From positions 1,701,884-1,765,883 of the forward strand of contig JARFYF010000036.1 of the NCBI GenBank assembly GCA_030265395.1: 64,000 nucleotides of DNA, given 5' to 3'. A program made the translations under genes and the position numbers. Source of the DNA: Rhina ancylostomus (lineage: Eukaryota). The notes beneath the pieces are model-generated. The model searched no databases. It saw nothing but the letters and a program-made list of their open reading frames with translations, and was not told the DNA's origin. Shown here piece after piece: positions 16,295 through 63,100 of the stretch (its first letter is position 1; each line of letters starts with the position of its first letter).

Positions 16295-16479
16295 CTATCT
16301 GGAGAACTTGCGAACAGCTTTGTATGACGTCGGTATAGACAGGAATATCGAGCCATCTTTGTCATCTGTTGTCAGGTTCTCTACTGAGCCCCAATTCTTT
16401 TTACTGCTTCCATAACTCTTTGGCAGGAAGAGTTCGGCAAGCTTCCGGTTCCGTCGCTCTCCCCGAGACTGCTGGAATT
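16295..16479 (-). CDS. SOWAH-family ankyrin-repeat gene, terminal coding exon
   Basis: TCTTTCTTGTGTTTTAG acceptor; phase 1 matches preceding exon; (K)FQQSRGERRNRKLAELFLPKSYGSSKKNWGSVENLTTDDKDGSIFLSIPTSYKAVRKFSR then TAG at 16295-16297. Confidence 0.85.
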
Positions 16480-19641: not shown

Positions 19642-19737
19642 TTGAAGAGACATTAGACTGATCTGTAGGGTCATCATTGTCTTTTAGATAGTGGGATGCA
19701 AACCGTCCACTATAGTCCCTTACATTTGTTTTTGCAC
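19642..19737 (-). CDS. SOWAH-family ankyrin-repeat gene, coding exon (end of ankyrin region)
   Basis: CAG|96 nt|GTAAGC, phase 1-1; GAKTNVRDYSGRFASHYLKDNDDPTDQSNVSS contains the SOWAH RDYSG...YL motif. Confidence 0.92.
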
Positions 19738-21619: not shown

Positions 21620-21692
21620 CATAATTATGAACTAGAAGATCCATGATGTCCAAGTGGGAATGCAGAGCTGCTATGTGCAAAGGTGTGTAACC
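21620..21692 (-). CDS. SOWAH-family gene, ankyrin repeat exon (GYTPLH)
   Basis: TGTTTCCTCAG|73 nt|GTGAGA, phase 0-1; GYTPLHIAALHSHLDIMDLLVHNY. Confidence 0.95.
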
Positions 21693-22736: not shown

Positions 22737-22739
22737 ACC
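22737..22739 (-). CDS. Single-codon microexon (GGT, Gly) of the SOWAH-family gene
   Basis: - strand TGTCATCTGTTTCTACTCCAG|GGT|GTGAGT; good pyrimidine tract and consensus donor; supplies the G of the HG-GYTPLH motif. Confidence 0.8.
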
Positions 22740-24573
22740 CTGGAGTAGAAACAGATGACAAGACAATCACCAAAAGCAGGGAAGAAAAAAAATTAAGTGT
22801 TTATTCAAAGATTGAATTTATAACAATACTTTTCCCCCTCCCACATTTCTTTTCCCCATCAGAATAATTCCTACTAAGGTGACGATCCTCACCTTCACTC
22901 AAATTCCTCAATCTTTCTTAATGACTAAATAATATTGACAGGAGATGGATGGAGAAGTAGTACACATGCTTTAATCTAAACAACTGGTCGGAGTGATTTT
23001 AACAGGAGGACACCAATTTAAAATCAATGATGAAAAATGTGTCCATATTGTCAATCTTTGCCACTTATAAAAAGGGCCGGATCTCTCTGTGGCTAAATAT
23101 GATGGGTCTAAACAAAACCATCAGCATTCAGCTGTTCAAACTGCAGCAAGTCATGGATCTGCATGCATTGCTGCCAAATGCGCAAGTCCCAAACTTACTG
23201 ACTGATTTGATGTCACAATAGACTATATAGCTCTGCCACTGGGAGTCCAGCGGAGGAGTTCACACTAGGTGGGGTTCCTCAGCATTACGTTCCTCAGTGA
23301 ACGTTCCATCTTGACCCCTGCATCAGGGTGACCCTGTTGCAGAATCCCAACCCCAATTTTTAAAAAAAATTTCATTTTAGTTTTTTTTATTGTTTCTAGA
23401 TGATTTGAACTTGTTAATTTTTAAAACATTTTTTGTTACAAGTCATCAAAAGCATCACAATTATCTTGCAGCTATTAAAGTCAACATATCTGGGTGCAAA
23501 GCTATATTGGTTGTGAAAGGTTTCATGGAGTTTTTGGGGCAAGTCAGACTCACTTTATTGCAGGAAGCCCTGCGCCCAAGCAGGCCCTGCACTGGAATGG
23601 TGGACGTTGAGGACCAAAATTACCCTTCTTCATCTGACCAGATTATGGTGAGGGAGCCCGTGGTTAAAGAAAAGTCTATTAATTCTTCAAGAAATGAATG
23701 AGAATATTACCAGAAGAGAAATATTAAAAGTGACTTGCCATAACCGGGAAGTTGCAAACTGTAGTGCTGGTATTGTAACACTGTATGATTTTACAAGATG
23801 TTTCTTCTTATATTTTAATTGTCTTTTTAAAATGTGGAATTGTGAGATATCACTTTTGACTTAAAGTGAAACAAACAGTGCTCAAGTACAATACAGCTTT
23901 ACATTAATTTTCATTTAAGAATAACGAAATGATGATTCAAGGTTGGGTTTGACCACTGATTTAATAAAAAGATCAAAACTATATTTCCATAATTGTTAAA
24001 TTCCTAGTTTGGTGAGTAAGTAATATCCTGTGTGTAAACGATATTCAGTACAACAACCACTGCCAGGACTAAAACTATGGTAGGAACTAAGCATTACAGA
24101 ATCTGTGGTTGAGTGCTACAGTGACCTTGTTTGCGAGGAACCACAAACATAACAAGGTTAATCACTTCATTCCATGAAGAAGTCATGCTAATGCAAACAG
24201 CAGGTAAGCAAGGCTCCTCATTCAACACTGCCAAAAAGGTGTTTGTCACGGCTTGCAAGGATGGAAGAATGAGGTTCATATGAATATGGATGGACCACAT
24301 CAGCAAAGCCATGGCTAACAAGGAGCTGATGCTTTTAAGGTGGGGAACGACAAAAAAACTGGCAGAGGAAACTGGCAAGAAAAATAAGAAAATATGCCTT
24401 TCAAACACACAAGTCAAGTTAAACTGATTTAAATGTGGAATTAACTGAACTATGCAAAGTTGCACTCAAATGTCTAGTGGTCATTTATTTGCCTTTTAAC
24501 TGAATCCTCTTAAATTTGGTTTCACTTAACAGGACATAATTGCTCAAAACAACATTAAACAACTTCAACTTAC

Positions 24574-24576
24574 ATG
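24574..24576 (-). CDS. Single-codon microexon (CAT, His) of the SOWAH-family gene
   Basis: - strand CTGCTTTCTGCCGTCTGATGGATAAACAAAG|CAT|GTAAGT; supplies the H of the HG-GYTPLH motif. Confidence 0.75.
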
Positions 24577-27500
24577 CTTTGTTTATCCATCAGACGGCAG
24601 AAAGCAGTGAAAGAGGAAACAAAAAATTATTCACTTCAAGTTCACTAAAAATTATATAGCATATTGAAGTAACAAAAGAGGTTTGAATATCCCATGTCAA
24701 AGATTAGATCTCTATGTTACACTTGTTCAATATGCAACATGCTGTTCAATCTGGGTTAGCTGTTAACACCCCCAGGAACGTGGCATTGGTTCAACTAATT
24801 AACCAACCTCCTTCAGTACACCACTTGTAACTGAGAATACTACGCCACTTGAATTTTCTATTATGAAACATGCAAGATAGCTATAAAACAAAAGCCAGGC
24901 TTTTAACTAGGCAGTAAATAATATGAGGAAATCAGGATACTTGCCACCAGAATAAACTGATAGCTAATAACACTCTAATATTCAAGCCTTTAGTCTATCA
25001 TTCCATTTGGAAACCTTTTTCCATATTATATCTTAAATAAAGTGAGCATATAGCTGGCCTTTCATTTCCAATTCCTTTAATCTCACAAAATATCCAATAC
25101 ATTATATAGTCTTTATTATGTTTCAATCACATTNNNNNNNNNNNNNNNNNNNNNNNNNNNNNNNNNNNNNNNNNNNNNNNNNNNNNNNNNNNNNNNNNNN
25201 NNNNNNNNNNNNNNNNNNNNNNNNNNNNNNNNNNNNNNNNNNNNNNNNNNNNNNNNNNNNNNNNNNNNNNNNNNNNNNNNNNNNNNNNNNNNNNNNNNNN
25301 NNNNNNNNNNNNNNNNNNNNNNNNNNNNNNNNNNNNNNNNNNNNNNNNNNNNNNNNNNNNNNNNNNNNNNNNNNNNNNNNNNNNNNNNNNNNNNNNNNNN
25401 NNNNNNNNNNNNNNNNNNNNNNNNNNNNNNNNNNNNNNNNNNNNNNNNNNNNNNNNNNNNNNNNNNNNNNNNNNNNNNNNNNNNNNNNNNNNNNNNNNNN
25501 NNNNNNNNNNNNNNNNNNNNNNNNNGTGATAGGCAGGTGCGGGGGAGGAGGGGAGAGCAGATCCACCGAGGGATGGGTCAAAGGTAAGGAGAGGAAAAAA
25601 AGGCTAGGAAAGGGAAGAGAAGCATGATGGGGGAGGGGGGTGGGGATTACCTAAAGTGGAGCTCTGCACCGTGGAACAATGCCATAAACCATTGTTTCTT
25701 AAAAAAAAGAACATGAACCCGTACATTCACTTTTAGATCATCTATCTTCTATTCCTTGGAACATTTTAACCAGCAATACATCAGTTGCTAAGTTTTTGTA
25801 CAAGCACACTGGAACAATGAGACACAACAAATAGAACTTTCAACATTCAGTGCCACAACCCATGCATCATTATCATGTACAACATGGTGGTTTGGTACAA
25901 TGTCTGTGGAAGTGTGTGCTAATTTTAATGCTAACTAAATTAAGGAGTTTTTCTATCATTTTGTTACTGGTGATTATTCTATAGTGGTGTATGTTACTAT
26001 ATGTTTTAAAATGAAATTTCATAATTTATCACATAGGCTTATCCTGGCTTTAATTCCAATTCTTTTCTTTTACTCAACCACTTTCCACACCTGCCTAATT
26101 ACCCAAGTATGAATTCTTTGCCTTGTCCATTCTCGTCCTCCAGCTGCCTGTCACATGCACTGTTCTCCAATACCCAAAGGACCTGTATGACAAGCTACCT
26201 ACCCAATAATGACCTCTATAATTAGCTTTGTACATTAGTTAACCTTCTTCCACTTCCATTGCTGCCTTTATGCTCCTGTGTCAAGTCTATACCCGACTGT
26301 CTGCAAATTGGTTCATGCTTGTGTATTCCACAAGTGACACAACTTTTCCCAGTTAATGTGTTTGTGCTTCAGAACATGTGGTATTCATTTTAATCATTTA
26401 CATAAGTGTGTAATTATATATAATGTAAATAATGTCATGTAAGGCATATATTGTAATGCTGTTTTACTGAAACAGGTTAAGTGGGATTGTAGTTTAAAAT
26501 ATATTTCAAATTACAATAAGGACACCAGTGTAAGTAAAGATGTGATTTTATATAATACATAATAAACTGGTTTACAGCCTTATGAAACCAGGCTCAGTGA
26601 CTCCGATCCATCATATTAGCACCAAAGTTCACAAGCTTTAAAGTTGGGTATTTTCTCATATTAAGTGTACGAGTTATTTATGGGAGTTCAATATACTTTT
26701 TGTACTTTGTTGAAGTTCAATAACCATAATCCTCTCCACTTCAAGTTCAAAGCCTAGCTTGACTTTGGGCATATTGAAGTATTTATCATGTGTCTTTCAA
26801 CTTGCATTTATATTCACTTGATACACAGGGACTGAGTACCCAAGTGCTGTTGTGGAGACTTTACCATTGCTTAAATTGGGATTGTGTGAGCGAGTGATGA
26901 GATTACCAAACAGGCACTTATAACGAGAGTTCAATTTTCTTTGATTCAGATTTCCTCTCTCCAGTTTTGTTTTTGATGGCTCCTATATGAATAGAAGCCA
27001 GAAATTTGTGGCCACAGCATAATTCGAGCAGAGCCTAGAGTGTTACTGAGACGTTTCACTTCTTGGCTTTATTTTCCATCTTGTGAAGGAGGAATTGTAT
27101 TAGAAAAGATGTGCCGACTCCAAAAAAGTGGAGAGTGTACTGCAAATAACAGCATGATTTTATTCAAGTATAATCATAATATTTCCACTTTTGCCATTTC
27201 AGACTCAATAATTCTCCCTTTCACTGTAATCTTTTTTTAATAAGACTGTGTTCAAAAACATTAGCTACCCTCCAGTCGTTCATCCAATTGGCCGTCATCA
27301 ACCTGGGCACTGTGAGAAGGGTAAAAACTTACCCAAAAGAGAATTACAAGCCTGATCACACCAGTTCACATCCAAGACATGCACACTCTCAGTGAAGATT
27401 AGGAGCATAAACTCTGTTCAATTGTCCTTATCCTCAAGCCAAAAACAACAGATAATTGATGAATCAGCTGGAGCTAGCTGATCACGTACTGAAGATGAAA

Positions 27501-28144: not shown

Positions 28145-28420
28145 CGAGACTGTGTGGAATCTGCACATTCTTCCTGTGTATGCGTGGGTTTCCCCCAGGT
28201 GCTTTGGTTTCATCCCACATACCAAAGACCTGCGGGTTGGTAAGTTAATTGACCACTGTAAATTGCCTTTAGTATGTAGGTGAGTAGTAGAATCTGGGAG
28301 GAGGGGCTGGATGAAAATGAGGGGAAAACAAAATAGGATTCTTCTGTAAATGGAAGGTTGATTGATTTTCAGTGTGGACTTGGTGGGCAGAAGGGCCTGT
28401 TTCTGTGCTCTGTAACTTTA
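28145..28420 (+). mobile_element. V-SINE copy, 5' truncated
   Basis: GCACATTCTTCCTGTGTATGCGTGGGTTTCCCCCAGGTGCTTTGGTTTCATCCCACA core and GGGCAGAAGGGCCTGTTTCTGTGCT tail. Confidence 0.75.
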
Positions 28421-29897: not shown

Positions 29898-29984
29898 AGC
29901 TCTGAGATTAATATCCACTCCTGCATTTATCAACATTCGTGCCATGTTTTCTTTGCCGTGTTTGGCTGCCCAGTGTAAAGCAGT
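29898..29984 (-). CDS. SOWAH-family gene, ankyrin repeat exon (TALHWAAKHG)
   Basis: TTTTTCTTCTTCCAG|87 nt|GTGAGT, phase 0-0; TALHWAAKHGKENMARMLINAGVDINLRA. Confidence 0.96.
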
Positions 29985-30785: not shown

Positions 30786-33700
30786 TTATTGATCTTCACT
30801 CCCTTTCTTCATCCCGGAAGAAGTCAGAACCTTTTTAAACTAGTTGCCAGCATTATTTGTCAAATCCCACTCTAAAACCCAATGTCCTAATCTGCTTTGA
30901 CAAACTGGTGCAGTACTGTGGGAGCACCATACTGCTAGAGGTACCATCTTTCATATGGAAATTAAATTGCTCTCTCAAGTAAACAGATACAATCACAAAG
31001 CACTATCCAAATGAGCAGAGAGACTCTCCCTGTGTCCTGGCCAATATTCATCCATCAGCTACCACCACCAAAGTAGACTGGGAAAAATCTGGTCTACAAA
31101 GTTCTGGCAATGTCATGAAGACCTGCCAACATTCATCTCCACAAAGAAAGTTTGGGATACTGGCTCAAGCAAATTCATATNNNNNNNNNNNNNNNNNNNN
31201 NNNNNNNNNNNNNNNNNNNNNNNNNNNNNNNNNNNNNNNNNNNNNNNNNNNNNNNNNNNNNNNNNNNNNNNNNNNNNNNNTAGAGAAGCCCTGAACTTGC
31301 TGAGGCATTCCAGGCAGGAAACTTGTCAGTCCACTCCACTGCTGGGCTTTGCATGGAATTCAAGTGCGGGCCACAAACTCATGGAAATTCCCCAGCCACT
31401 CACACAAGGCATCTGCACAAGGATCACAAGCCAGGATCCAAGAGACCATTTCAAAATGGACTTTATAGCTGCAAGGAAGAAAGTCTATTTAAAAAATCTT
31501 GCCTCTCCCCATTATTTGAGTTTGCAGAAACATTTTATTTAACAATGCTTTGTATTATTTTAGTCTTTTTAACAATACATTTTACTTTTAATTATGCATC
31601 TTTTAAGGTTTTGAATGCCCTGAATGGCAGTGACAGTTAGAAACATTCCAAAAACATGACAAATCTGATGAGAGAGCCAAGTTAGAGCTGAAGGTTTGCT
31701 GTCAAAGATTTCCCCAGCACCTTCCCCAGGTAGGGCTTGTTCTGGCTTGTACGTTACATCATGAAAGGCATTGCTGTTGGGTCACAGACATTTTTGGTTA
31801 GCAAATTCCTCTTCATTAATCCAAACTAGTTCAGTGCAGGGCCTCTGGGGCAATCCAAATGGATAACAGAAATAAGGCAGGCTGGGCCATTATCTGATCC
31901 CCATCACGAGGACCTTGCTCAACCTCACTGTGCACTAATTGGCTGTTAGCTATAACAGTGGTTGTAAATCACTATGGAACACACTGGTCATCAAAAATAC
32001 AAATTTAAGTACATGCTCTTGTTCTAAATTAAATGTTCAACATTGCTTCTGTGATCCAGATGGTTCAGTTTTTAACCATGAGGCACACTCAAATATCCAA
32101 TTTCTCCTTATAACCACAGCCCTTCATTCCAGGCAACATCCTGGTGAATTTCTTCTGCACTCTTTCTAATGCTATTCCATCATTCCTGTAGTGTGGTGAT
32201 CAACACAATACTCCAAGTGCAGCCTGACCAATGCTTTTTTTCACAGCTGCAACATGACATCCCAACTCCTTTACTCAATGAGTTGTCTTGTCGTATTGCT
32301 CAATTATACTCAACGTACCAGGTTCGATCGCTAGTCTGCTGTGTGTCATGCCTCCCAACACCTCAACCACAATGGGGGAAGGCTGCCAGAGTCCTGACTC
32401 CTGAGCATTAGTCAAGGGGAGGAGGGCACATTGAGCAAGAACAAAATTGAGTTCACAGATAATGACCTTTCCAATGTGAACAATCTTTCAGCATTTTTCA
32501 TTGTGCTTCAAATATGAGAAATCCCAACGTATAAGTGAAGCATTGGAGAAAGCCCAGTGCTCATGAAACTGTCCCTTTAGTAGTAAACCAAAATCAGGGA
32601 AGGGATGCAACTGGGAAAAACAACCAGCTTCTGTTCACCCAACATTTTCTTCATCTCAGTAGATAATACATTTTGTTGAGACATTGCATTAGCAATGTTT
32701 AAAATCAAAATATTCATATCCTATTTGATTGCATTATGACAGAGACATTTGAGGGGAATTGAATTTTGCTGCTAAAATATAAAGGCTAGTTTGCTATTAA
32801 AATACAAGTTTAAATTGTTCTAATATTTTTATATTTAAATTTTCTCTGGGTCTTCAAATGGGGAAAATCTAAATAACTGCAGGTATACTTTAAGGATATA
32901 CTAAATGTAAAAAAAAACAATTTTGAATTAACGTGTTTTTCTAACCTGGATCACAAATCTGTCTTTGATGATCCTAAGAAAATTGTCGGGCTGTTACTAC
33001 CTGATGATCATCTTCCCTCCTTGGAGGCCCCATGTTTGTAGTTCACCGTCTGTTTCGTACTGGAAAATTCCCTGAATTTGCCAGCTGCTCACGAGTGTAT
33101 GTACGACATTTCCTGCCCATTCGGCTAAGCTAATTACAAAACAACAAACCAAACGTGCCTCAAATGAAGCCAAGGTGTAAGTGCTTGACAGGACTGATGA
33201 TTGATGATGTTTGCTGCGACCCATCGGCTGTGGTGAACAGGGGCCTAGTTATGCTCTCACCAACTTCCCGCTCAGTGGGAATGTCACAACTGAAGCCTAA
33301 TATTTATGTTAAAAATAATTTTAGTGAAAGAAAGAAAACCAGAGTAATTGCAATGGGCTCATTAGACACCTGGGAGAAGAAACTTCCTCTAGAAGTAGAT
33401 TTATTTTAATGAGACAGTATTATTACCATCTCATTATAACCAAACAGCTTTTTTGATCGTCTCTTGGTAATCTAAACATTCAATTTAGACAATGCATGCC
33501 TAATTTTAAAGTGTAATTTATAGCAGCATGCACAGAACTTTGACGTGTGTGGCAAAGACATTACCAACTGAGATTTCACTGACTAATGTATATAGATTTA
33601 CTTTCTACAGACTGTTTTTCTATATGCACGCTTTAGATGTGTACATAAACAAAGTAATCAGATCTAAAAGCTGTCTTCTCTTTAAAGGGAATTCTTTAAG

Positions 33701-33974: not shown

Positions 33975-34202
33975 AATTGGTAAGTTGGTTTATTATTGTC
34001 ACAGGCACCAAAGTACAGTGAAAAACTTGTTTTGCATGCCAGCCACACAGATCATTTCTTACACGGTGCATTGAGGTAGTACAAGGGAAAACAATAACAG
34101 AATGCAGAATAAAGCATGACAGTTGCAGAGAAAGTGCAGTGCAGGCAGACAATAAGGTGCAAGGGTCATAATGAGGTAGATTGTGAGGTCAAGAGTCCAT
34201 CT
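33975..34202 (-). mobile_element. Rex1/Babar-type 3'UTR fragment, runs into a gap
   Basis: Reverse complement of the 3'UTR at about 4910-5115 (TTTATTATTGTCAC...GCAGAGAAAGTGCAGTGCAGG...GTGCAAGGGTCAT). Confidence 0.7.
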
Positions 34203-36341
34203 NNNNNNNNNNNNNNNNNNNNNNNNNNNNNNNNNNNNNNNNNNNNNNNNNNNNNNNNNNNNNNNNNNNNNNNNNNNNNNNNNNNNNNNNNNNNNNNNNN
34301 NNNNNNNNNNNNNNNNNNNNNNNNNNNNNNNNNNNNNNNNNNNNNNNNNNNNNNNNNNNNNNNNNNNNNNNNNNNNNNNNNNNNNNNNNNNNNNNNNNNN
34401 NNNNNNNNNNNNNNNNNNNNNNNNNNNNNNNNNNNNNNNNNNNNNNNNNNNNNNNNNNNNNNNNNNNNNNNNNNNNNNNNNNNNNNNNNNNNNNNNNNNN
34501 NNNNNNNNNNNNNNNNNNNNNNNNNNNNNNNNNNNNNNNNNNNNNNNNNNNNNNNNNNNNNNNNNNNNNNNNNNNNNNNNNNNNNNNNNNNNNNNNNNNN
34601 NNNNNNNNNNNNNNNNNNNNNNNNNNNNNNNNNNNNNNNNNNNNNNNNNNNNGACCAGCTACAAGAAGAATGGGGTTAGTAGCAATATCTCCCTATTCTA
34701 TGCAGGGTCACAGAATTATCCCTTTGAGTTAATTGTATTGCTCAAGCGACACAAGTGAATTTTCAAACTGGACTAATCTAAAAATATTTTAACTTCTTCC
34801 ATAGGAAGGCATATTCATAGACAAGTTCTGAAACATTTAGATCCAGGTAGTTTTCTTTTTGAAAAAAGTCTTTGTCAAGCTTCTGGCAAAATTCTTGCAG
34901 TTACCATTGTGAGGAAATGGTACCAATAAATGGGAGGAAGAAAGGGGTAAACTTGGGTCGCCCTGGACACCCAAATGAATGGTGCTTCTACAATGGCCAT
35001 CTGACTTGGAAGGACATCCGGCACTGTACCTTGAAGGTCTACTGAGCAAAGTGCTTGAGGGCCTGTTTCTACCTATGGTCCTGGTTCAGGCAACAGATGC
35101 AAAGTGGACCACGAGGAAAATCATGGCTTTATGGAACTTCAGATCCTTAGTTTTCCTTTGGAGTGAAATTGTGATTGAAATTGAATTACAGGGCACAAAG
35201 CCATGGTTCAATTTCTAGCTCCAATATTTACGGACTTTAAATTCATTCATGCAAAATCCAAAATCCCACCTGCTTTTCTAATTACTTGCTACAGCTCCAC
35301 TTTGGCAAGCAGAATATGCGTAACATTTTCAAAAAGTCTTTTCTCTGCATTTACAACTATCAAGAACGTCACAGCTCTGGACTGGCCAAGAGATTGCATA
35401 CTCTGCCTTAAATAACTATAGGCAGATGTACATCTCCCCAATTCCCAGATTTTTTAAAATTTTGAGTGAGCTGTCAAATCACCATAGCAGTAAATTCTGA
35501 ACACATTTGAAACCATCCACCATTAGCATCCAAATTTTCCTACTCTCTCCTCCTCCAGTAGGCAATTCAAGAGATTATTCTGACTTCTTAATCAAGATTT
35601 GGGCTCAACATGAAGGTGTAACAGGTCCTTCAGAAACCTCCCTACCATAAATCCTTTAGTCTTGTGGTTTTACGTACATTATTTTTGAATTACAGAATTA
35701 CTGTTGGTCTCACTCCTCAAACACAGTTAATGATTTGCTTAAGAAATTAAATTGCTTTTACAATTTACAACAAGAAGCAAATGAAGCTCAGTACCAACAA
35801 ATGTGAAGCGGCAGACAGTGAATAAGAGTTTGAGATATTAGGTATACAAATAAAGAAATGAAAAATAAAATTAAAGAGGCTTAAAAATTTTTTCATTGGC
35901 CAGATAAAGTGATGATACAAATAGTGAAGCAAGGAACAAGGTCTAACAGAATTGTGGAATAGTTAGTCAGGACACTTAACACATATAGATTATTCCGAAA
36001 GCTCTGATGATATTCACACCACATTAGGGAGGTCTATGTATTAGAAAGATACAAATCACTGTGAAGAACTCATTATTTCACTCCGAAGGATGAAGACAGG
36101 ATGGATCTTTAAATTATGAGCTTAACTGACAGAATTGTACTACAAAGATCAGTTTTGGAGGATGCAAAAAAAATGCTCAAACTAAATACAGTATTATTAT
36201 TTTTTCCCCCTCTGATTATCTCCCTTCGTTACATCAAGACAGAGGTGGCTCACAGGGCTAGAAGTCAATAAAATCCAGTATTTACAAATTTAGCAAAAAT
36301 AAACCTTCTACAGTTATACTTAAGATACAAAAGAAACTTAC

Positions 36342-36344
36342 GAA
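36342..36344 (-). CDS. Single-codon microexon (TTC, Phe) of the SOWAH-family gene
   Basis: - strand GATTGTTCCTCGCCGTAG|TTC|GTAAGT; supplies the F of DFTS-GF-TALHW. Confidence 0.8.
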
Positions 36345-37399
36345 CTACGGCGAGGAACAATCATTTCCGAAGTTGAAGAGATGATCCACAATTCAGAGAT
36401 GAGAAGCAAATTGTGATAAGGTAAAGAGAAAAATGTCATTGAGAAAAACCTGAACACAAATATTTCAATAAAGCTATTCTACATTCCAAAGAGTAGAAAG
36501 TGGCTTTGTACTGCATGAAACGTGCCAAATTAGCAACCTGTAATTGCATGCAGACCCTAGCTCATAAAGCAATCAAAGACAACGTTACTTGTGTGCAGCT
36601 TCACTTCTGGTAAAGGATAAATTTACAGTTTTGTGTTCTTGGAGATGTCCTGAAGTGTACATTGAGAATCCAGGCATTGTCTGATTTCCCCATTTTGTAC
36701 CTACCACAGGCAATGATCTGTGCTCTCAATACTGACAAGCAAACATAATTAATTTGCTCTACTCTGGGTTCTTTATTAACTTTAAATAAACAAATACAAG
36801 GATAAATTTTTTCATACAAAATAGACTTTATTCTATATAAACAAAGAAATCTATTAGTTCTCAACATGCATCGCTAACACATATCGAATTGTCGCACTGA
36901 ATTATAATTTTCCTTGGTAAAACTTGTTGAATGATAGTCATTAACAATGATGACATTGTTGAAAGAGTATTTTTGCTGTTAATTACCAGACAACTTTTGG
37001 TGGCAAGTTTAATTGCCAATTCATGTCATGCATTAATAAATCACAAGCAAGATGACATTTTCGCAAAGATATTGCAGAGTAGTACAAATTAATCAGCAAC
37101 TTGTAGCCATTTCTAATTCAAGTGGGATCTCTTTATAGCAGTGTTACAGGGCTATTTGCACATTAATATTGCTGTGCATTGTTCATAAGGTGGTATGAAC
37201 AATGCACCTTTAGCACAATTTGGGTCTTCAGCATGAGTACGAACTGATATATCTGGACCGAATGCCAGGTTTGAGAGCATCATTCGGTCCACAGTGCTTT
37301 TCAACTAGATCAGCTCACAAAACTAGTAACATAAAATAATTATCAAATGGTTTGCGAGATTTCTTTTCTAAAGAAAATAAATGCAACACAATCTCAGCT

Positions 37400-38560
37400 G
37401 GGACAGTTGAGGGAAAACAAAGACATCAAAGTTTAAACAAAAAATGAAAAGCATTAAAAGTGGCAAAACTTAGTGGTAGACAAGAGGACTGGGAACTTTT
37501 CAGGAATCAGCAGTGGTGGTCTTAAAAGCTAATGGGAAGTGGGAAAATTGATTACACTGGCAAGTAATTATCGAAACAGTGAGAGTTACTATCCTTGTAT
37601 TAAAGGGAAGATGGCAGCTAAGTGTGGAACTCCTTAAGAGTGAGACTGGGGAATTAATAAAGGGAACAGCAGATAATTTAAATCAATACCTTGCATTAGT
37701 CTTCACAGTAGGAGGACAATGCAAGCGTCCCAAGGATAACTAATGGGCTAGTTTCAAATAGGAGGGATTGTTACAAGTTCTTCCCTATCATCAAGGCTCA
37801 AGGCATTGGAAAAGCTAATGGACTAAGGACAGACAAATCAACAACACCCAATGGCCTGCATTCAAGGATTTTAAAGGAAGTGGCTGCAGAGATAGCAGAG
37901 CTATTGGTTGGATTTTTTCCAAAAACCCTGTTTTCCAGGGAGGTACAAGTGGATTGGAAAGCAGTGCACATGATTGCCTAGTTTAAGAGATAAAAAACAG
38001 GAAACTACAGGCCAGGTAGTTGATGACTACGTCAGGAAGATGCTGGAGCTTCTAATGAAAGAAGAAATAACTAGTTATAAAGAAAAGCTTCATGCAAGCA
38101 AACCAAGTCACCATGGCTTTATCAAAGGAAATTCATGTTTGAGAAATTTGTTGAGAAGTTCTTCCAGGATATAAACAAGCAGAGTCAACAGAAGAAAGTG
38201 AGACGATATGACTGAAACACAAGACCCTAAGCAGGAATGTTGTTGAGTTGTTTCCACTAGGGGGAGTGTTTTGAATTAGGGGAGGGGAGGAGTCATTGTT
38301 AAAAACCCGTGGTGCACAGGAATTCCTTCTCAGATGGTGGAATCTCTCTGGAGTTCTCTACCCCAGAGGGCAGCAGAGGCTAGATCATATCATTTGAGGT
38401 ATTTAAAGAGGAGGTAGATAAACTTTTGAAAGATTGGGGAATTGAGGGCTATGTGGATCTGGCACAGAAGGAGCTGAGGCTAGGGGAAGATCTGGCATGA
38501 TCCTATTGAATGGTGGGGCAGGTTGGAATTGCCCAGCCCTGCTCCTATTTTCTTGTGTAT
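37400..38560 (+). mobile_element. Degraded CR1 LINE (ORF2 pieces plus 3' end)
   Basis: CR1 remnants such as YLALVFT, LHSRILKEVAAEI, DWK, HHGFIKGNSCLRNL, with frameshifts and stops. Confidence 0.8.
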
Positions 38561-40288
38561 AAACAGGCAAGCCTGAAGGTCATGGTGTTCCCATGCACTG
38601 CTGACCACATCCTCCTTGTTGGGCTTGGTCAGAGGGTTGGGGAGGTGCTGCAGCTGCCTGCCACTATAGCCACCCTGTGCCAATGGAAGGGGTGATGAGT
38701 GTTAGATGTTCTTATTAGCACTTATTTAAAAAAAGTCACAGGAAGGTTGATGTTAATAGATAAGAATTTGGCAAAGCAATCATGCCTTGACTTTGCTGAT
38801 TGCTCACTTTCAAGAAAACTGCCCATGAAGATCTGTCTTTAGTCTGGATGTTCCCCTTGGATCTGTTGGCCTCTAAAGATCCCCAGTGCCTGGTGAATTC
38901 AAGTTCACAGAAAGTATTTCCACACTCCCACCCAAACAATCTAACCATATCCTCACACAGCAAACCAGCACATTGAAAGCTTTAGCTTATCTTTAGCGTA
39001 AAAAGACACAAAAAATTTTAGAGAACAAAATAGATTTTGGGACCTCACAATATTAAGGGAGAAGCAGAGATTTTACCTTTAAAAATATGGCATTCTGGAT
39101 TAATTACCTGAAGGAACTGGACTTCTTATAAAAAGGTTTGACAGGCAATGGGGTCACTAACTATTATAGTTTAGTCTGCAGTAAAAATAAGGTCGACCAC
39201 ATTCAACGAGGCATATCATTTACTTCTTAATAAAAAGTTAGAATAGTTTGCAATTTGTTGGAACGCTCGACAAATCTCAACCAGCGTCTGAATTTTGGGA
39301 TTAAACTGTGCATATTTTTTCAGAAGCAGCGGCTGTCAGATATTCTTCATAATAACTGTTTCTGTATTAGATTAAATTACAATTATTTTGTATTTGATAA
39401 GCCCTGTGGCTTTGAAATGTACATTTCCCTCAGGATAAAAAAAAGAAATTTACAAAAAGAATTGTGAATTAGTTATCTTTCTTTATGACAACACTAATAC
39501 TTCTGGCAATCACCACCAGTATAATAACCCAACCATGCGATAGATTCTGGTGAAGCTGAATGTGGTCCTCACCTGACTGAGGACTGAACCTTCCATTATG
39601 GATGGCTCTTTTCCTTTACCTACCTGAAGACGTTCAATTCCACATCTCAAACCTAAATGTCCAGATCCAGAACAATTATTAAATGCTTTTTCATTTGAAA
39701 AAAATAGGGCGGTCCTGTTATCTAGCTATCATCTTGTGCCATGCATCACCAACTGTCCTCCAAGCCTTGCTGGTATGTTTGCCTCATGAGGCAGATCACT
39801 TTGCACATGACAAGACCTTTGGCAGTGGATCCGGAGTCCTGACCCCAGATTGGTGATCTAGCATTTTGAACAATTTCTAAATTCATCAAGTATTAGTGCC
39901 TGTAATTGGATAAAAGTATAGTTACTACAAAGCACGGCTCTTTACAAAGTTCTATTGGTTGAAAAAGGCCACTCAGTGCCGCTCTAAAGGATGTTATAAA
40001 ATGTATCAACTTCCAATTAAAATTCTGAAATTAGTTATATAGATAACATTTCATTCTCTGACCTGCAGATCTGAGTTTAGCAGCACTTGGGAAATTTTAA
40101 GATAGATAGAATTTCCATCAATTTTCCTTAGCACAGACCAATTGGAGTGTTCTGTCCCAAATGGCCCAGTGGAGATTAACTGACATACCATACACCATGG
40201 ACTGACCGTAAGTCTTCCTTGATCAGTAACAAACATGATATAGTTTTACACAAGACCAAAATTGTTCCAATTGTGGTTAAGTACTTAC

Positions 40289-40291
40289 CCC
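40289..40291 (-). CDS. Single-codon microexon (GGG, Gly) of the SOWAH-family gene
   Basis: - strand CACTAAC-TTTGAAATGATCTGTGTGATGATAG|GGG|GTAAGT; consensus branch point 27 nt upstream; supplies the G of DFTS-GF-TALHW. Confidence 0.78.
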
Positions 40292-40316
40292 CTATCATCA
40301 CACAGATCATTTCAAA

Positions 40317-40323
40317 GTTAGTG
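40317..40323 (-). promoter_or_regulatory. Consensus splicing branch point CACTAAC for the Gly microexon
   Basis: Near-perfect U2 branch sequence with branch A at -27 from the 3' splice site. Confidence 0.6.
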
Positions 40324-41272
40324 GGATCAAACAGGCACACCGATTACAAAGGAGTTATAGGGCAGGAGAAAAAGGAAATATATTTCAGTCAAGAATTTAA
40401 AACTTCCAAAACATCAGCAAATTGAACTGAGATGAATCTGCAGATAGGATATCCTGCAAAATTATATTCAGGCATTTTTGTTTTGTATATCTTTAACATT
40501 TAAAATAATTATAAATATTAAAACAGCAATACAGGCTACAATAAAGGAGTTAACAGAATCAGCATTTACATTGCTATTGGAAAAAGGAAGCAAGAATTTG
40601 CATGAAATTAACACAATCTTTGGCAGCACCAGTGTCAAAGATTAGGATAAATCAATGGGACAATACATTTCTAAAAATCTTCAGTAATTTACAAAATGTC
40701 CAGATGACAGAGGCATATTAGTTAAGTGAATTAATTCCCACATTACAATGCAGTAAAACTTCACTAAAGTCTTACAAGATCTTGGGATCTTTCAAAATAT
40801 TTTTACAATCAATTAAGTATTTTAGAAGTGTAGTTACTATTTTAATATAGGAAACAAAGTAAAAGAATCTCCAGAAGAGCAATGATATAATGGCTAATTG
40901 TTTTCTTAAAATACTGTTGGGTTTGAGGAATAAACATTAACCAAAACATCAAGGACAAATTTAGTTTCTTTTTGTAATAGGGCCATGTCTTCCACTGGCC
41001 ACTAAGGACCTCAGGTTGTGGTCTCAGAACATTAGTATTCCACTGAGCTGTCAGACACAATTTTGCTCATCACTGGAGTGGAGCACGATTCCACAACTTT
41101 CTGACTCAGGTGAGTGCACTGTGGTTGTTGAATCATCTCACTTCATTTTGAAAATGCTGTATGATATTGAGTAGCTCAATATGGATTGTACCTAATATGT
41201 CTTGAGCACATTTTAAATATCATAAATTTAAAATATATTCAAAGAAAAGCTAGTAGAAATATAGGTACTTAC

Positions 41273-41284
41273 AGATGTGAAGTC
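41273..41284 (-). CDS. 12-nt microexon (DFTS) of the SOWAH-family gene
   Basis: - strand AATTCTGAAG|GACTTCACATCT|GTAAGT, phase 0-0; matches the SOWAH K-DF(I/M/T)S motif. Confidence 0.9.
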
Positions 41285-42230: not shown

Positions 42231-42332
42231 CTTTTTCATTGCCAGAGATGGATCCTGCTTGAGAAGGTCGCACAAAGCAGTTAAATGTCCAATGGCAGCA
42301 CACTTCAGCCACTCCTTCTCTAAAGGATCCAA
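42231..42332 (-). CDS. SOWAH-family gene, exon preceding the ankyrin repeats
   Basis: TTACTTTTCTTAAAG|102 nt|GTAAAC, phase 0-0; LDPLEKEWLKCAAIGHLTALCDLLKQDPSLAMKK, the SOWAH L(D/E)PLExEW...LLxxDPxLA motif. Confidence 0.95.
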
Positions 42333-44035: not shown

Positions 44036-44430
44036 TTGTCCCATCTACCTGCACCCAGACCATATCGCTCCAAACCCCTCCCATCTATGTACCTAAACTT
44101 CTCCTAAATGTTACAATTGAACCTGCATCCACCACTTCCACTAACAGCTCGTTCCACACTCACACCACCCTCTGAGTGAAGAAGTTTTCCCTCAGATTCC
44201 TCTTAAATATTTTGCCTTTCACCCTAAACCTATGTCCTCTAGTTCTAGTCTCACCCAACCTTAGGGGAAAAGGCCTGCATGCACTCACCCATTGATACGC
44301 CTCATAATTTTATACAACTCTAAGATCTCCCTCATTCTCCTGTGCTCCAGGGAATAAAATCCAAGCCTGTTCCACCTTTCCCTATAACTCAGGTCCTCAT
44401 GTCCTGGCAACATTTGTGCAAATTTTCTTT
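44036..44430 (-). mobile_element. CR1 LINE 3' fragment
   Basis: Reverse-complement CR1 end (TTCCACACTCACACCACCCTCTGAGTGAAGAAGTT...CTTTCCCTATAACTCAGGTCCTCATGTCCTGGCAACAT). Confidence 0.8.
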
Positions 44431-54654: not shown

Positions 54655-54717
54655 AGCAACAGAGGGCGATCCCATACTTCCACTGCCATCCTCAAATCCA
54701 TTTTGTTCCAAGTCATC
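54655..54717 (-). CDS. SOWAH-family gene, coding exon
   Basis: TGTTCTATTTCAG|63 nt|GTAAGT, phase 0-0; DDLEQNGFEDGSGSMGSPSVA joins to give SVA-LDPLE, as in SOWAH proteins. Confidence 0.85.
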
Positions 54718-60236: not shown

Positions 60237-61157
60237 CATATAGAACATAGAACAATACAGGCCCTTCAGCCCACCATGTTGTGCTGTCTATCAAACCACA
60301 CCTAACACTATCTAACCCCTTCCTCCCACATATCCCTCCATATGCCTATCCAACAATCTCTTGAACCTGTCCAATGTATTCCATGCACCAACCACTCTCT
60401 GGGTGAAAAACCTCCCTCTGACACCTCCCCTGAACTTCCCACCCTTAACCTTAAAGCCATGCCCTTATCTTGAGCATTGGTGCCCTGGGAAAGAGGCACT
60501 GGCTGTCTACTCTATCTATTCCTCTCAATATTTTATGCACCTCTATCATGTCTCCCCTCATCCTCCTCCTCTCCAATGAGTAAAGCCCTAGCACCTTAAG
60601 CCTCTCCTCATATTNNNNNNNNNNNNNNNNNNNNNNNNNNNNNNNNNNNNNNNNNNNNNNNNNNNNNNNNNNNNNNNNNNNNNNNNNNNNNNNNNNNNNN
60701 NNNNNNNNNNNNNNTAATGCGGCGACCAGAACTGAACACAGTACTCTAAGTGTGGTCTAACTAGAGTTTTGTAAAGCTGCATCATCACTTCACGGCTCTT
60801 AAACTCAATCCCACGACTTATGAAAGCTAGCATCCCACAGGACTTCTTAGCTGCCCTATCCACCTGTGAGGCAACTTTCAGTGAACTGTGAATATGAACC
60901 CCCTTTGCTCTTCTACACTGCCAAGTACCTTGCCATTTACCTTGTACTCTGCCCTGGAGTTGTCTGCCCAGTGCTGCATCCTATCAATGTCCCTCTGTAA
61001 GCTTCGACAGCCCTCCACACTATTCACAACACCACCGATCTTAGTGTCATCCACAAACTTGCTAACAGAGCCTTCTACCCTCTCATCTAAGTCATCTATA
61101 AATATACCAAAAAGTAGAGGTCCCAGAACCAATCCCTGCGGGACACCACTAGTCACA
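60237..61157 (-). mobile_element. CR1 LINE, 5'-truncated, with reverse transcriptase remnant
   Basis: [24 protein letters not shown]...[11 protein letters not shown] and GMLAFISRGIEFKSREVMMQLYKTLVRPHLEYCVQFWSPH; (CATAGAA)n tail at about 60237-60253. Confidence 0.92.
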
Positions 61158-62950
61158 CATTTGGGTAGTGCAGTGATGTGGGCAGCAGGATTTGGAGATG
61201 AGACACAAAGGAGGAAAGAATGTGTGTATACATCCAACAAGACTAGGTCCATGTGCCACCCCCTCCATACCTGTACAGATTCACTATCTGGGTTCACATA
61301 TGGAGCCAGGCCATTTGGGCACAATCTAGGAGGGAAGGATGCACTTGAAAAACTGCACCCCAATAAGGACTAATGACTTCACCTCAGGAAGGGATATACA
61401 CGGGCTTTACACAACAATTTCAGATTTTGAAAGTTGTGGAATAATATTATGCAGTAGACTATTGACTGTAACAGCACTGGTGGTGTTAAGCTCATAGGCT
61501 AGTTTGAGAATTAGGAAACACATTAGAAAAACTACCACAGGTAACTATGAATGAGAATGACAAATTCACATTTTCACTGCAACAAGCCATAACTCAGCAT
61601 TATCTTCTTTTAACAACCTGGGACCTGTTCAAGTAATAAGTACAGCTATAATTCAGGAAATCCAGAGGCTCTCCGTACCCCACCCCCATCACTCCATTTC
61701 TCACAGAGCATAGGGAACCTATGCTAATTACAAAAACGACCAGATGGTAGAGATTGGAAGACTTTTATGGTGAGGACCGAATAATTAACATTTATAAATA
61801 AAATTAGTTGCCCTATTAGTCTTGCAGACGAGAAAGATAGCTAAGCTGTTCCATACAGTAGTATCCACAATAGTGTAACAAAGGTAAAACAATCTGATTG
61901 CAATTAGCTTTGAAACTATGTTGTAATAAATGGCAATTTCCATGTCAGTTTTATCAGTCAGAACTGACTTTGCTTCAATGTTATAATTCTGACCCGCAGT
62001 CAAGCAGAACTTGGCTTTGTAAGAAATGGTGGTCAGGTCTGAAATTATTCTGGGCTACATAAACAAACCTCTGCCAAAATGCTAAATCCTGAAGCAATTA
62101 CCATTCCTTCTAATTCACAGCAATTTTATACAATTTCATTTAATGTTTGACTATTACAGATTCTATACCAAATTGAAGGCTTTCCATGATCCAGCATTTG
62201 AAATGTGTATCCACTGATCCTTACCAAAAAAAACAGCATCACTATACAATTTGTCAATTCAGACAGATTGTTTTCACCCTCTCAAAAGCCACTCCAATTT
62301 AAAACTTCTTCTAGTACCTTCCCAAAACACTAATATTCTCTGTGACGATAATGAANNNNNNNNNNNNNNNNNNNNNNNNNNNNNNNNNNNNNNNNNNNNN
62401 NNNNNNNNNNNNNNNNNNNNNNNNNNNNNNNNNNNNNNNNNNNNNNNNNNNNNNNNNNNNNNNNNNNNNNNNNNNNNNNNNNNNNNNNNNNNNNNNNNNN
62501 NNNNNNNNNNNNNNNNNNNNNNNNNNNNNNNNNAGGATCAACAGAATGTTCCTTTGTACATGACACTGCCTTCAACATTGCAACACCTTTCTTTTACTGC
62601 TCATCTTTTCACTCCCAAATCAGTAGCCATTCTTTGAATCATGTAGCATAATGTCCAAGAATATACAATGTATACATTTGACAAGGTTCTCAAATTATAT
62701 TTTAATTTACTATTTACTTATTTCTTAACCTTTTAATGACAATTCTTACTTCTAGTAATTCAGGTATAGTCTTTCCTCAAAACAGCATCAGCATTTTCTG
62801 GGCAAGTTGAAGTTCAAATTATCGAATAAGATTCTATTAAATTTTAAATCTGCCTTCACATTTTGGTGTTGACTTTCGTAACCCCTCAGCTTGCTTTTAT
62901 TTTTCTTAATTTCCCCAAAAGATTGTAGGGGGACAGATTTATGAGAGTAC

Positions 62951-63100
62951 CTTGAACACAGATTCAAATTCTTCCTGCTGAGCTTCTTCCACCTTTATTT
63001 CAATATTCACTGGATTTCCTGCATTGTTTTCAGAAGCAACATCAGACTTTTCATCCTGCTTTTCTTCAGATGCTTCACTGTAGCGAAGTCCAGGATTTCC
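62951..63100 (-). CDS. Probable upstream coding exon of the SOWAH-family gene (acidic, low-complexity region)
   Basis: TTAAATTCTAG|150 nt|GTACTC, open only in phase 0; GNPGLRYSEASEEKQDEKSDVASENNAGNPVNIEIKVEEAQQEEFESVFK; donor is weak and homology is not verified. Confidence 0.55.

Follow-up and report, generated by a model that had tools for sequence, protein, structure and literature searches.

A 64,000-nucleotide (nt) stretch of the Rhina ancylostomus genome, referred to here as the window, carries on its minus strand the multi-exon, Irx-linked Sowah gene of cartilaginous fish, and four exons of this gene consist of a single codon each, arranged as two tandem pairs (Gly and Phe, then His and Gly). 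We regard the existence of these four exons as virtually certain. A broader reading is offered tentatively: constitutive single-codon exons may occur in the multi-exon Sowah gene of vertebrates as two independent tandem pairs, one shared with the fly and the other a single intron gained or lost away from a 6-nt fly exon, with all four exons defined independently of SRRM3/4 by an AG-free pyrimidine zone of 55-109 nt and a full donor site.

The first pair had been described in an earlier note on this DNA, and its account of the sites was reproduced in full. On the minus strand, a 12-nt exon encoding the residues DFTS is followed by a Gly exon (TAG-GGG-GTAAGT) and a Phe exon (TAG-TTC-GTAAGT), and the introns around these three microexons measure exactly 946, 981, 3944 and 6357 nt. 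The perfect donors that the note emphasized are present on both exons but are not peculiar to microexons, since GTRAGT was found at two of six ordinary internal exons as well as at all five microexons. Dinucleotide shuffling of the 11,288-nt interval produced ordered Gly-then-Phe sites with GTRAGT donors in 0 of 2000 trials, and in 5 of 2000 when the donor was relaxed to GTRAG. Across the window, sites of the form AG-NNN-GTRAGT occur five times on the minus strand and never on the plus strand; four of the five encode the G, F, H and G required by the protein, in that order, and a plus-strand scan of the window yielded no matching microexons. A single 6-nt Gly-Phe (GF) exon, raised in the note as the alternative, was not present in the sequenced DNA: contiguous GGGTTC has 0 occurrences in the 11,288-nt interval outside its gaps, and among the five possible splits of GGGTTC, splice sites flank both pieces in the 3+3 division alone. 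That alternative retains the unsequenced N gaps at 31181-31280 and 34203-34652.

A second tandem pair, overlooked in the earlier note, consists of a His exon (AAG-CAT-GTAAGT) and a Gly exon (CAG-GGT-GTGAGT) separated by 1834 nt. The assembly-derived protein P0020 requires His-Gly (HG) between the exons encoding TALH and GYTPLH, and the pair was reproduced in 0 of 2000 shuffles. No AG-CAYGGN-GT/GC site of the kind expected for a 6-nt His-Gly exon was detected in the sequenced interval, in which one gap remains (25134-25525). The remaining AG-NNN-GTRAGT site of the minus strand, AG-TCA-GTAAGT (Ser, 23199-23201), is probably a decoy; its AG-free zone is 19 nt long and it is absent from transcripts.

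Spliced contigs from a related species contain the junctions expected from these exons. In both RNA-like runs with contigs at the first junction (X1 and X4), the 102-nt exon is joined to the 87-nt exon through the exact 12+3+3 bases of the window, all 18 bases being identical, synonymous positions included. No 12+3+3 joint was found in the DNA runs X5 and X6. All four runs X1-X4 join the TALH and GYTPLH exons through six bases encoding His-Gly. Runs X1-X4 derive from one study of one related species (share 0.06), and their contigs report the presence of a form, with rare forms dropped; run X5, free of differences in the pieces listed, may have been the source of the assembly itself and does not count as independent support. 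Constitutive inclusion, for which the earlier note had argued, agrees with the sequences of the assembly-only (Logan) homologues, 19 of 19 of which carry the full form, and with the contigs of runs X1-X4. A check for combinatorial splicing likewise returned the full form alone, from contigs of this same kind. Routine inclusion of the four single-codon exons and the DFTS exon in most transcripts is, in our judgement, likely.

Homologues were counted among the best 120 of 738 matches, which comprise the 19 assembly-only proteins and 101 annotated ones. Both GF and HG were present in every assembly-only protein. At the first junction, the annotated proteins had GF in 41 cases, F only in 31, G only in 8, neither residue in 5 and other sequence in 16. 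At the second junction, both residues were present in 65, H only in 14, G only in 2, neither in 7, intron sequence in 9 and other sequence in 4. Independent loss of single residues is what separate exons predict, and this piecemeal loss, seen in teleosts, turtles, birds and a caecilian and read from annotation errors, suggests that the residues may be encoded by separate exons across jawed vertebrates. Among 19 annotated shark and ray models, which are cluster representatives for which better isoforms may exist, 2 contain GF, 0 contain both pairs and 15 lack an in-frame ankyrin repeat. Most of these models break at the microexons, and as a result the gene looks truncated in databases. Several of the proteins P0001-P0019 read into the intron after the DFTS exon, and the read-through peptides are alike across sharks, hinting at conserved intron sequence at this position.

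Four Sowah paralogues that appear intronless were found elsewhere in the genome. The second junction is read through in one frame in all four and the first junction in three, the fourth paralogue having an N run just ahead of it; the residues at the first junction are kept as G-F, G-Y or G-L. In a tree, the window gene and 23 vertebrate homologues formed one moderately supported group (91/87, not starred); its separation from the four paralogues, which have long branches among them, is provisional. Proteins P0022, P0029, P0040, P0057, P0062 and P0066, from turtle, bird, lizard and caecilian, fall with the multi-exon gene. Single microexon residues are missing from several of these proteins, and those of reptiles and birds have no N-terminal SOWAH domain (PF25877). 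This grouping suggests that multi-exon Sowah survives in some tetrapods, contrary to the available part of a literature summary, which has the gene lost in tetrapods. Invertebrate homologues were not reached by our searches, of which the one against representatives returned generic ankyrin proteins and the one against longer proteins gave one match among eight candidates, a goose model.

The single-codon exons encode residues of two ankyrin loops. The glycine of the first pair is, as the earlier note had held, the conserved ankyrin glycine, and it occupies position 2 of repeat 1: the Pfam Ank match begins at residue 284 of P0020, which corresponds to profile position 2. In alignments with ankyrin chains this residue falls on the G of GxTxLH; the Phe residue occupies position 3, and structure prediction places GF at the end of a loop and the beginning of the first helix. 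For repeat 2, an ordinary exon encodes the glycine at position 2, and the two residues preceding this glycine come from the microexons. The pairs thus stand in different register within their repeats and have only the intron before position 2 in common. The note had further expected skipping to disturb the fold. The ankyrin helices, however, remained confident in a model lacking GF, and what weakly favours the expectation is the loss of the loop: residues 277-283, a loop, give way to a helix at 234-247 in the protein without GF, and the predicted local distance difference test score (pLDDT) of the block falls from 84-89 to 78, with one model from each of two different species being compared. 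These models point weakly to an effect of GF loss that would be local rather than global.

The microexons were distinguished from other exons by their acceptors. Zones free of AG upstream of the microexons measured 54, 109, 103, 55 and 87 nt, compared with 25, 18, 40, 20, 19, 66 and 20 nt for ordinary exons (one-sided p=0.005). Similarly, AG-NNN-GTRAG sites had zones of 55-109 nt when used (n=4) versus 0-23 nt when unused (n=11). The best pyrimidine windows of the microexons lie 23-88 nt upstream. Two ankyrin loops are assembled from the 12-nt exon and the four single-codon exons (Gly, Phe; His, Gly), and we consider it reasonably probable that these exons are recognized by a displaced-tract, donor-anchored mechanism. 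Under this mechanism, the intronic part of the donor would anchor U1, and the factors bound to the branch point and pyrimidine tract would be placed 25-100 nt upstream instead of adjoining the AG, such that the recognized unit would greatly exceed 3 nt and the steric clash would be eased. Choice of the AG would come late and fall on the first one past the tract, and for that reason upstream AGs would have been purged. Removal of the two introns flanking each exon would be sequential, with a probable downstream-first bias and no obligatory order. Inclusion of a 9-nt mini-exon of potato invertase is reportedly linked to a branch point and pyrimidine tract that lie upstream of it.

The motif UGC was absent within 40 nt of the acceptors of the DFTS, Gly and Phe exons, and was found at -39 of the second Gly exon. 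The available fly eMIC table lists a different sowah exon, of 46 nt (PMC8797185). Neural control of the SRRM4 type is unlikely for the Gly and Phe exons, because UGC is missing nearby and the 46-nt exon is the only sowah exon listed in that table.

A number of observations weigh against the preferred reading or parts of it. At the acceptors, one ordinary exon has an AG-free zone of 66 nt, the Gly exon also carries a consensus branch-point motif at -27, no match to the branch-point pattern was found upstream of the Phe exon (branch points here being predicted), and UGC stands at -30 and -23 of the His exon. In the available text on SRRM4 microexon assays, donor strength predicts inclusion and the length of the AG zone is only weakly tied to it, far below donor strength (bioRxiv 10.1101/2024.09.17.613571); long AG-free zones could equally arise from selection against cryptic acceptors. 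At the second pair, the transcript of the relative has CAC and GGC where the window has CAT and GGT, third-position differences that are both C-to-T at CpG, and the gap inside the His/Gly interval spans 392 nt; because of the third-base differences, the His/Gly pair is slightly less certain than the Gly/Phe pair. The transcript contigs come from a relative and not from this species, and runs X1-X4 are marked 'RNA?' (X4 'probably DNA'), although their contigs are spliced. Homologues were ranked against a query bearing GF and HG, which biases the counts towards inclusion, and annotated models with G only or F only could be real skipping isoforms.

The earlier note had also argued for a strict splicing order. 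Such an order is not required, as the steric clash forces sequential removal of the two introns and does not fix which is removed first. The steric and order idea is already in print (available text of PMC10250204 and PMC8378409), the latter source proposing intron definition through PRP-40. That inclusion of the same exons hinges on one strict order of intron removal, either 5' to 3' and co-transcriptional, with each kilobase intron allowing time, or as a 3' to 5' chain, is nonetheless an explanation to be weighed, and one we consider unlikely. It draws on the inability of a 3-nt exon to hold both splice-site complexes (same sources), on the separation of the microexons by introns of 0.9-6.4 kilobases (kb) and on the proximal tracts, which are weakest in the first exon of each pair, with 7 and 6 pyrimidines of 15. 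As far as the available text of PMC10250204 goes, however, 58% of SRRM4 microexons were spliced downstream-first and 26% upstream-first, while control microexons were about equally divided between the two orders, and displaced tracts provide a route that needs no fixed order.

It is also improbable that the single-codon exons are alternatively spliced to tune the ankyrin loops (G only, F only or neither), in the manner of the truffle nank family. Full GF is missing from 60 of the 101 annotated homologues, some species have isoform models both with and without it, every skip preserves the frame, and the model without GF keeps confident ankyrin helices. Yet the full form was found in all 19 assembly-only proteins and in every run examined, the intronless paralogues keep the included form, and many of the annotated variants read into the intron (VS, VI), as misaligned models do; the 3-nt fly exons, moreover, were not found in the alternative-exon tables searched, as available (PMC8042270, PMC8797185). 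That one or both pairs are decoys, with a contiguous 6-nt exon hidden in an assembly gap as at the second junction of the fly gene, is extremely improbable. The three unsequenced gaps given above leave room for such an exon, and the His and Gly codons differ from those of the relative. Against this stand the shuffles, in which neither pair recurred, the identity of the Gly and Phe codons with the transcript, the long AG-free pyrimidine zones of the actual sites, which decoys lack, and models with H only or G only in other vertebrates, including a shark and a chimaera. Compared with these alternatives, the preferred reading remains that of routinely included single-codon exons with displaced tracts.

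The closest known counterpart is sowah of Drosophila (FBgn0036302), which in the available table has FlyBase-tagged exons of 12, 3 (Gly), 3 (Tyr) and 6 (Asn-Gly) nt, in that order (Pang et al. 2021, PMC8042270 Supplementary Table 4). Among the ten 3-nt rows in sheet 1 of that table, sowah is the sole gene with two 3-nt exons. In the fly gene, as in the ray gene, a 12-nt exon is succeeded by a 3-nt Gly exon and a 3-nt exon for an aromatic residue, spaced 1-3 kb apart in the fly, and then by a short exon or exons encoding xG. The two genes differ in that the aromatic residue is Tyr in the fly and Phe here, and in that the fly has one 6-nt Asn-Gly exon where the ray has His and Gly exons of 3 nt. 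When the window was checked for a chain of the fly type, the 12+3+3-nt exons before the TALH exon were present and a single 6-nt exon before the GYTPLH exon was not found. From length, order and codons, we infer that the fly and ray exons are orthologous. The 12-nt exon and the 3-nt Gly and aromatic exons, already annotated in the fly, very likely predate the split between flies and vertebrates.

Other systems share fewer features with the ray gene. Neural microexons dependent on SRRM3/4 (eMIC) resemble it, in the available descriptions, in being very short, with strong donors, weak proximal acceptors and a tract set back from the AG (PMC10250204; bioRxiv 10.1101/2024.09.17.613571; PMC8797185). 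The Sowah exons differ from these in forming tandem single codons within a structural ankyrin motif with no sign of tissue switching and, for Gly and Phe, no UGC within 40 nt. The truffle nank family also has several codon-sized exons in an ankyrin-containing gene, alternatively spliced to diversify the product according to the available account (2012, via PMC4986451), whereas the Sowah exons encode conserved residues and appear to be included. Plant microexons are likewise conserved and often overlooked or misannotated, but they belong to plant genes, and the available text describes adjacent microexons of 5 and 12 nt and no tandem 3-nt pairs (PMC8831610). Finally, a regulatory block of Iroquois and Sowah, together with intronless Sowah retrogenes, was described by Maeso et al. 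2012 (as cited in the available parts of PMC12311624 and PMC5803294). The ray genome has a multi-exon Sowah near an Irx-type gene and intronless-looking paralogues elsewhere, and differs in that an FRG1 exon separates the Irx gene from Sowah. Iroquois enhancers within Sowah introns, reported in that literature, are a likely reason for the persistence of the introns.

The identity of the gene was established with the 102-nt exon as query, the 20 closest matches all (20/20) containing PF25877 and 19 of them being annotated shark or ray models, mostly named SOWAH. Window exons also gave Ank matches (Pfam). Twelve coding exons were mapped in the window with homologue proteins (tblastn), and their joined frame is open to the stop codon at 16295 (Table 1). 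Three further 5' exons lie past the right end of the window (G000:C36, ~1767500-1787662) and match the PF25877 region. On the other side, an Irx-type TALE homeobox gene is located at G000:C36:1672878-1672997, 45 kb from the Sowah stop codon and 29 kb left of the window; its frame contains what we take to be an IRO-box-like motif. The FRG1 exon (Pfam PF06229) lies at ~2515-2631 of the window on the plus strand. High-copy repeats of very high depth were noted in the introns at ~33985-34202, 32120-32270, 38390-38540, 25526-25600 and 28240-28420, and the gap at 34203 starts within one of them. By eye, candidate reverse transcriptase fragments, presumably of the long interspersed nuclear element (LINE) type, were seen on the minus strand at ~60717-61325, 60315-60464 and 44163-44309.

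Table 1. Coding exons of Sowah in the window, with the acceptor zones of the first single-codon pair
Feature	Position	Strand	Basis and remarks
Sowah coding exon, 150 nt	62951..63100	-	tblastn with homologues; joined reading frame open
Sowah coding exon, 63 nt	54655..54717	-	homologue mapping; joined reading frame open
Coding exon, 102 nt, helices preceding first full ankyrin repeat	42231..42332	-	homologue mapping; spliced contigs
DFTS microexon, 12 nt; AG-free zone 54 nt	41273..41284	-	spliced contigs; fly counterpart 12 nt
Gly exon GGG, 3 nt, ankyrin position 2 of repeat 1	40289..40291	-	spliced contigs; fly 3-nt GGC exon
AG-free zone, 109 nt, upstream of Gly exon	40294..40402	-	19/20 pyrimidine window -87..-68; branch-point-like motifs -98, -27
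Phe exon TTC, 3 nt, ankyrin position 3 of repeat 1	36342..36344	-	spliced contigs; fly 3-nt TAT (Tyr) exon
AG-free zone, 103 nt, upstream of Phe exon	36347..36449	-	17/20 pyrimidine window -88..-69
87-nt exon, body of ankyrin repeat 1 (TALHW...)	29898..29984	-	Pfam, homologue mapping, spliced contigs
His exon CAT, 3 nt, first of second pair; AG-free zone 55 nt	24574..24576	-	relative's transcript CAC
Gly exon GGT, 3 nt, ankyrin position 1 of repeat 2; AG-free zone 87 nt	22737..22739	-	relative's transcript GGC
73-nt exon, ankyrin repeat 2 (GYTPLH...)	21620..21692	-	Pfam, homologue mapping, spliced contigs
Coding exon, 96 nt	19642..19737	-	homologue mapping, spliced contigs, joined frame
Last coding exon, through stop codon	16295..16479	-	homologue mapping; joined frame

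The layout of these exons is not new, as those of the fly are already annotated; the 3+3 split of a 6-nt exon and the AG-free signature are what was not found in print. No description of Sowah microexons was found in the main texts searched, and Maeso 2012, Simpson 2000 or their supplements may already describe the exons or the mechanism. Interest is tempered by the existing fly annotation and by the poorly known function of the Sowah protein. Accounts of how a 3-nt exon flanked by kilobase introns is included still appeal to steric arguments in the available text of the two papers on this subject (PMC10250204, PMC8378409). Sowah has four exons of this kind, in two pairs, which share a measurable signature and come with decoys as internal controls, and this combination makes models of splicing order and branch-point use directly testable. 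If the reading is correct, misannotation would have concealed a parental gene in sharks, fish and some tetrapods, and Sowah would be a natural and ancient test case for the minimal exon in genomes with long introns.

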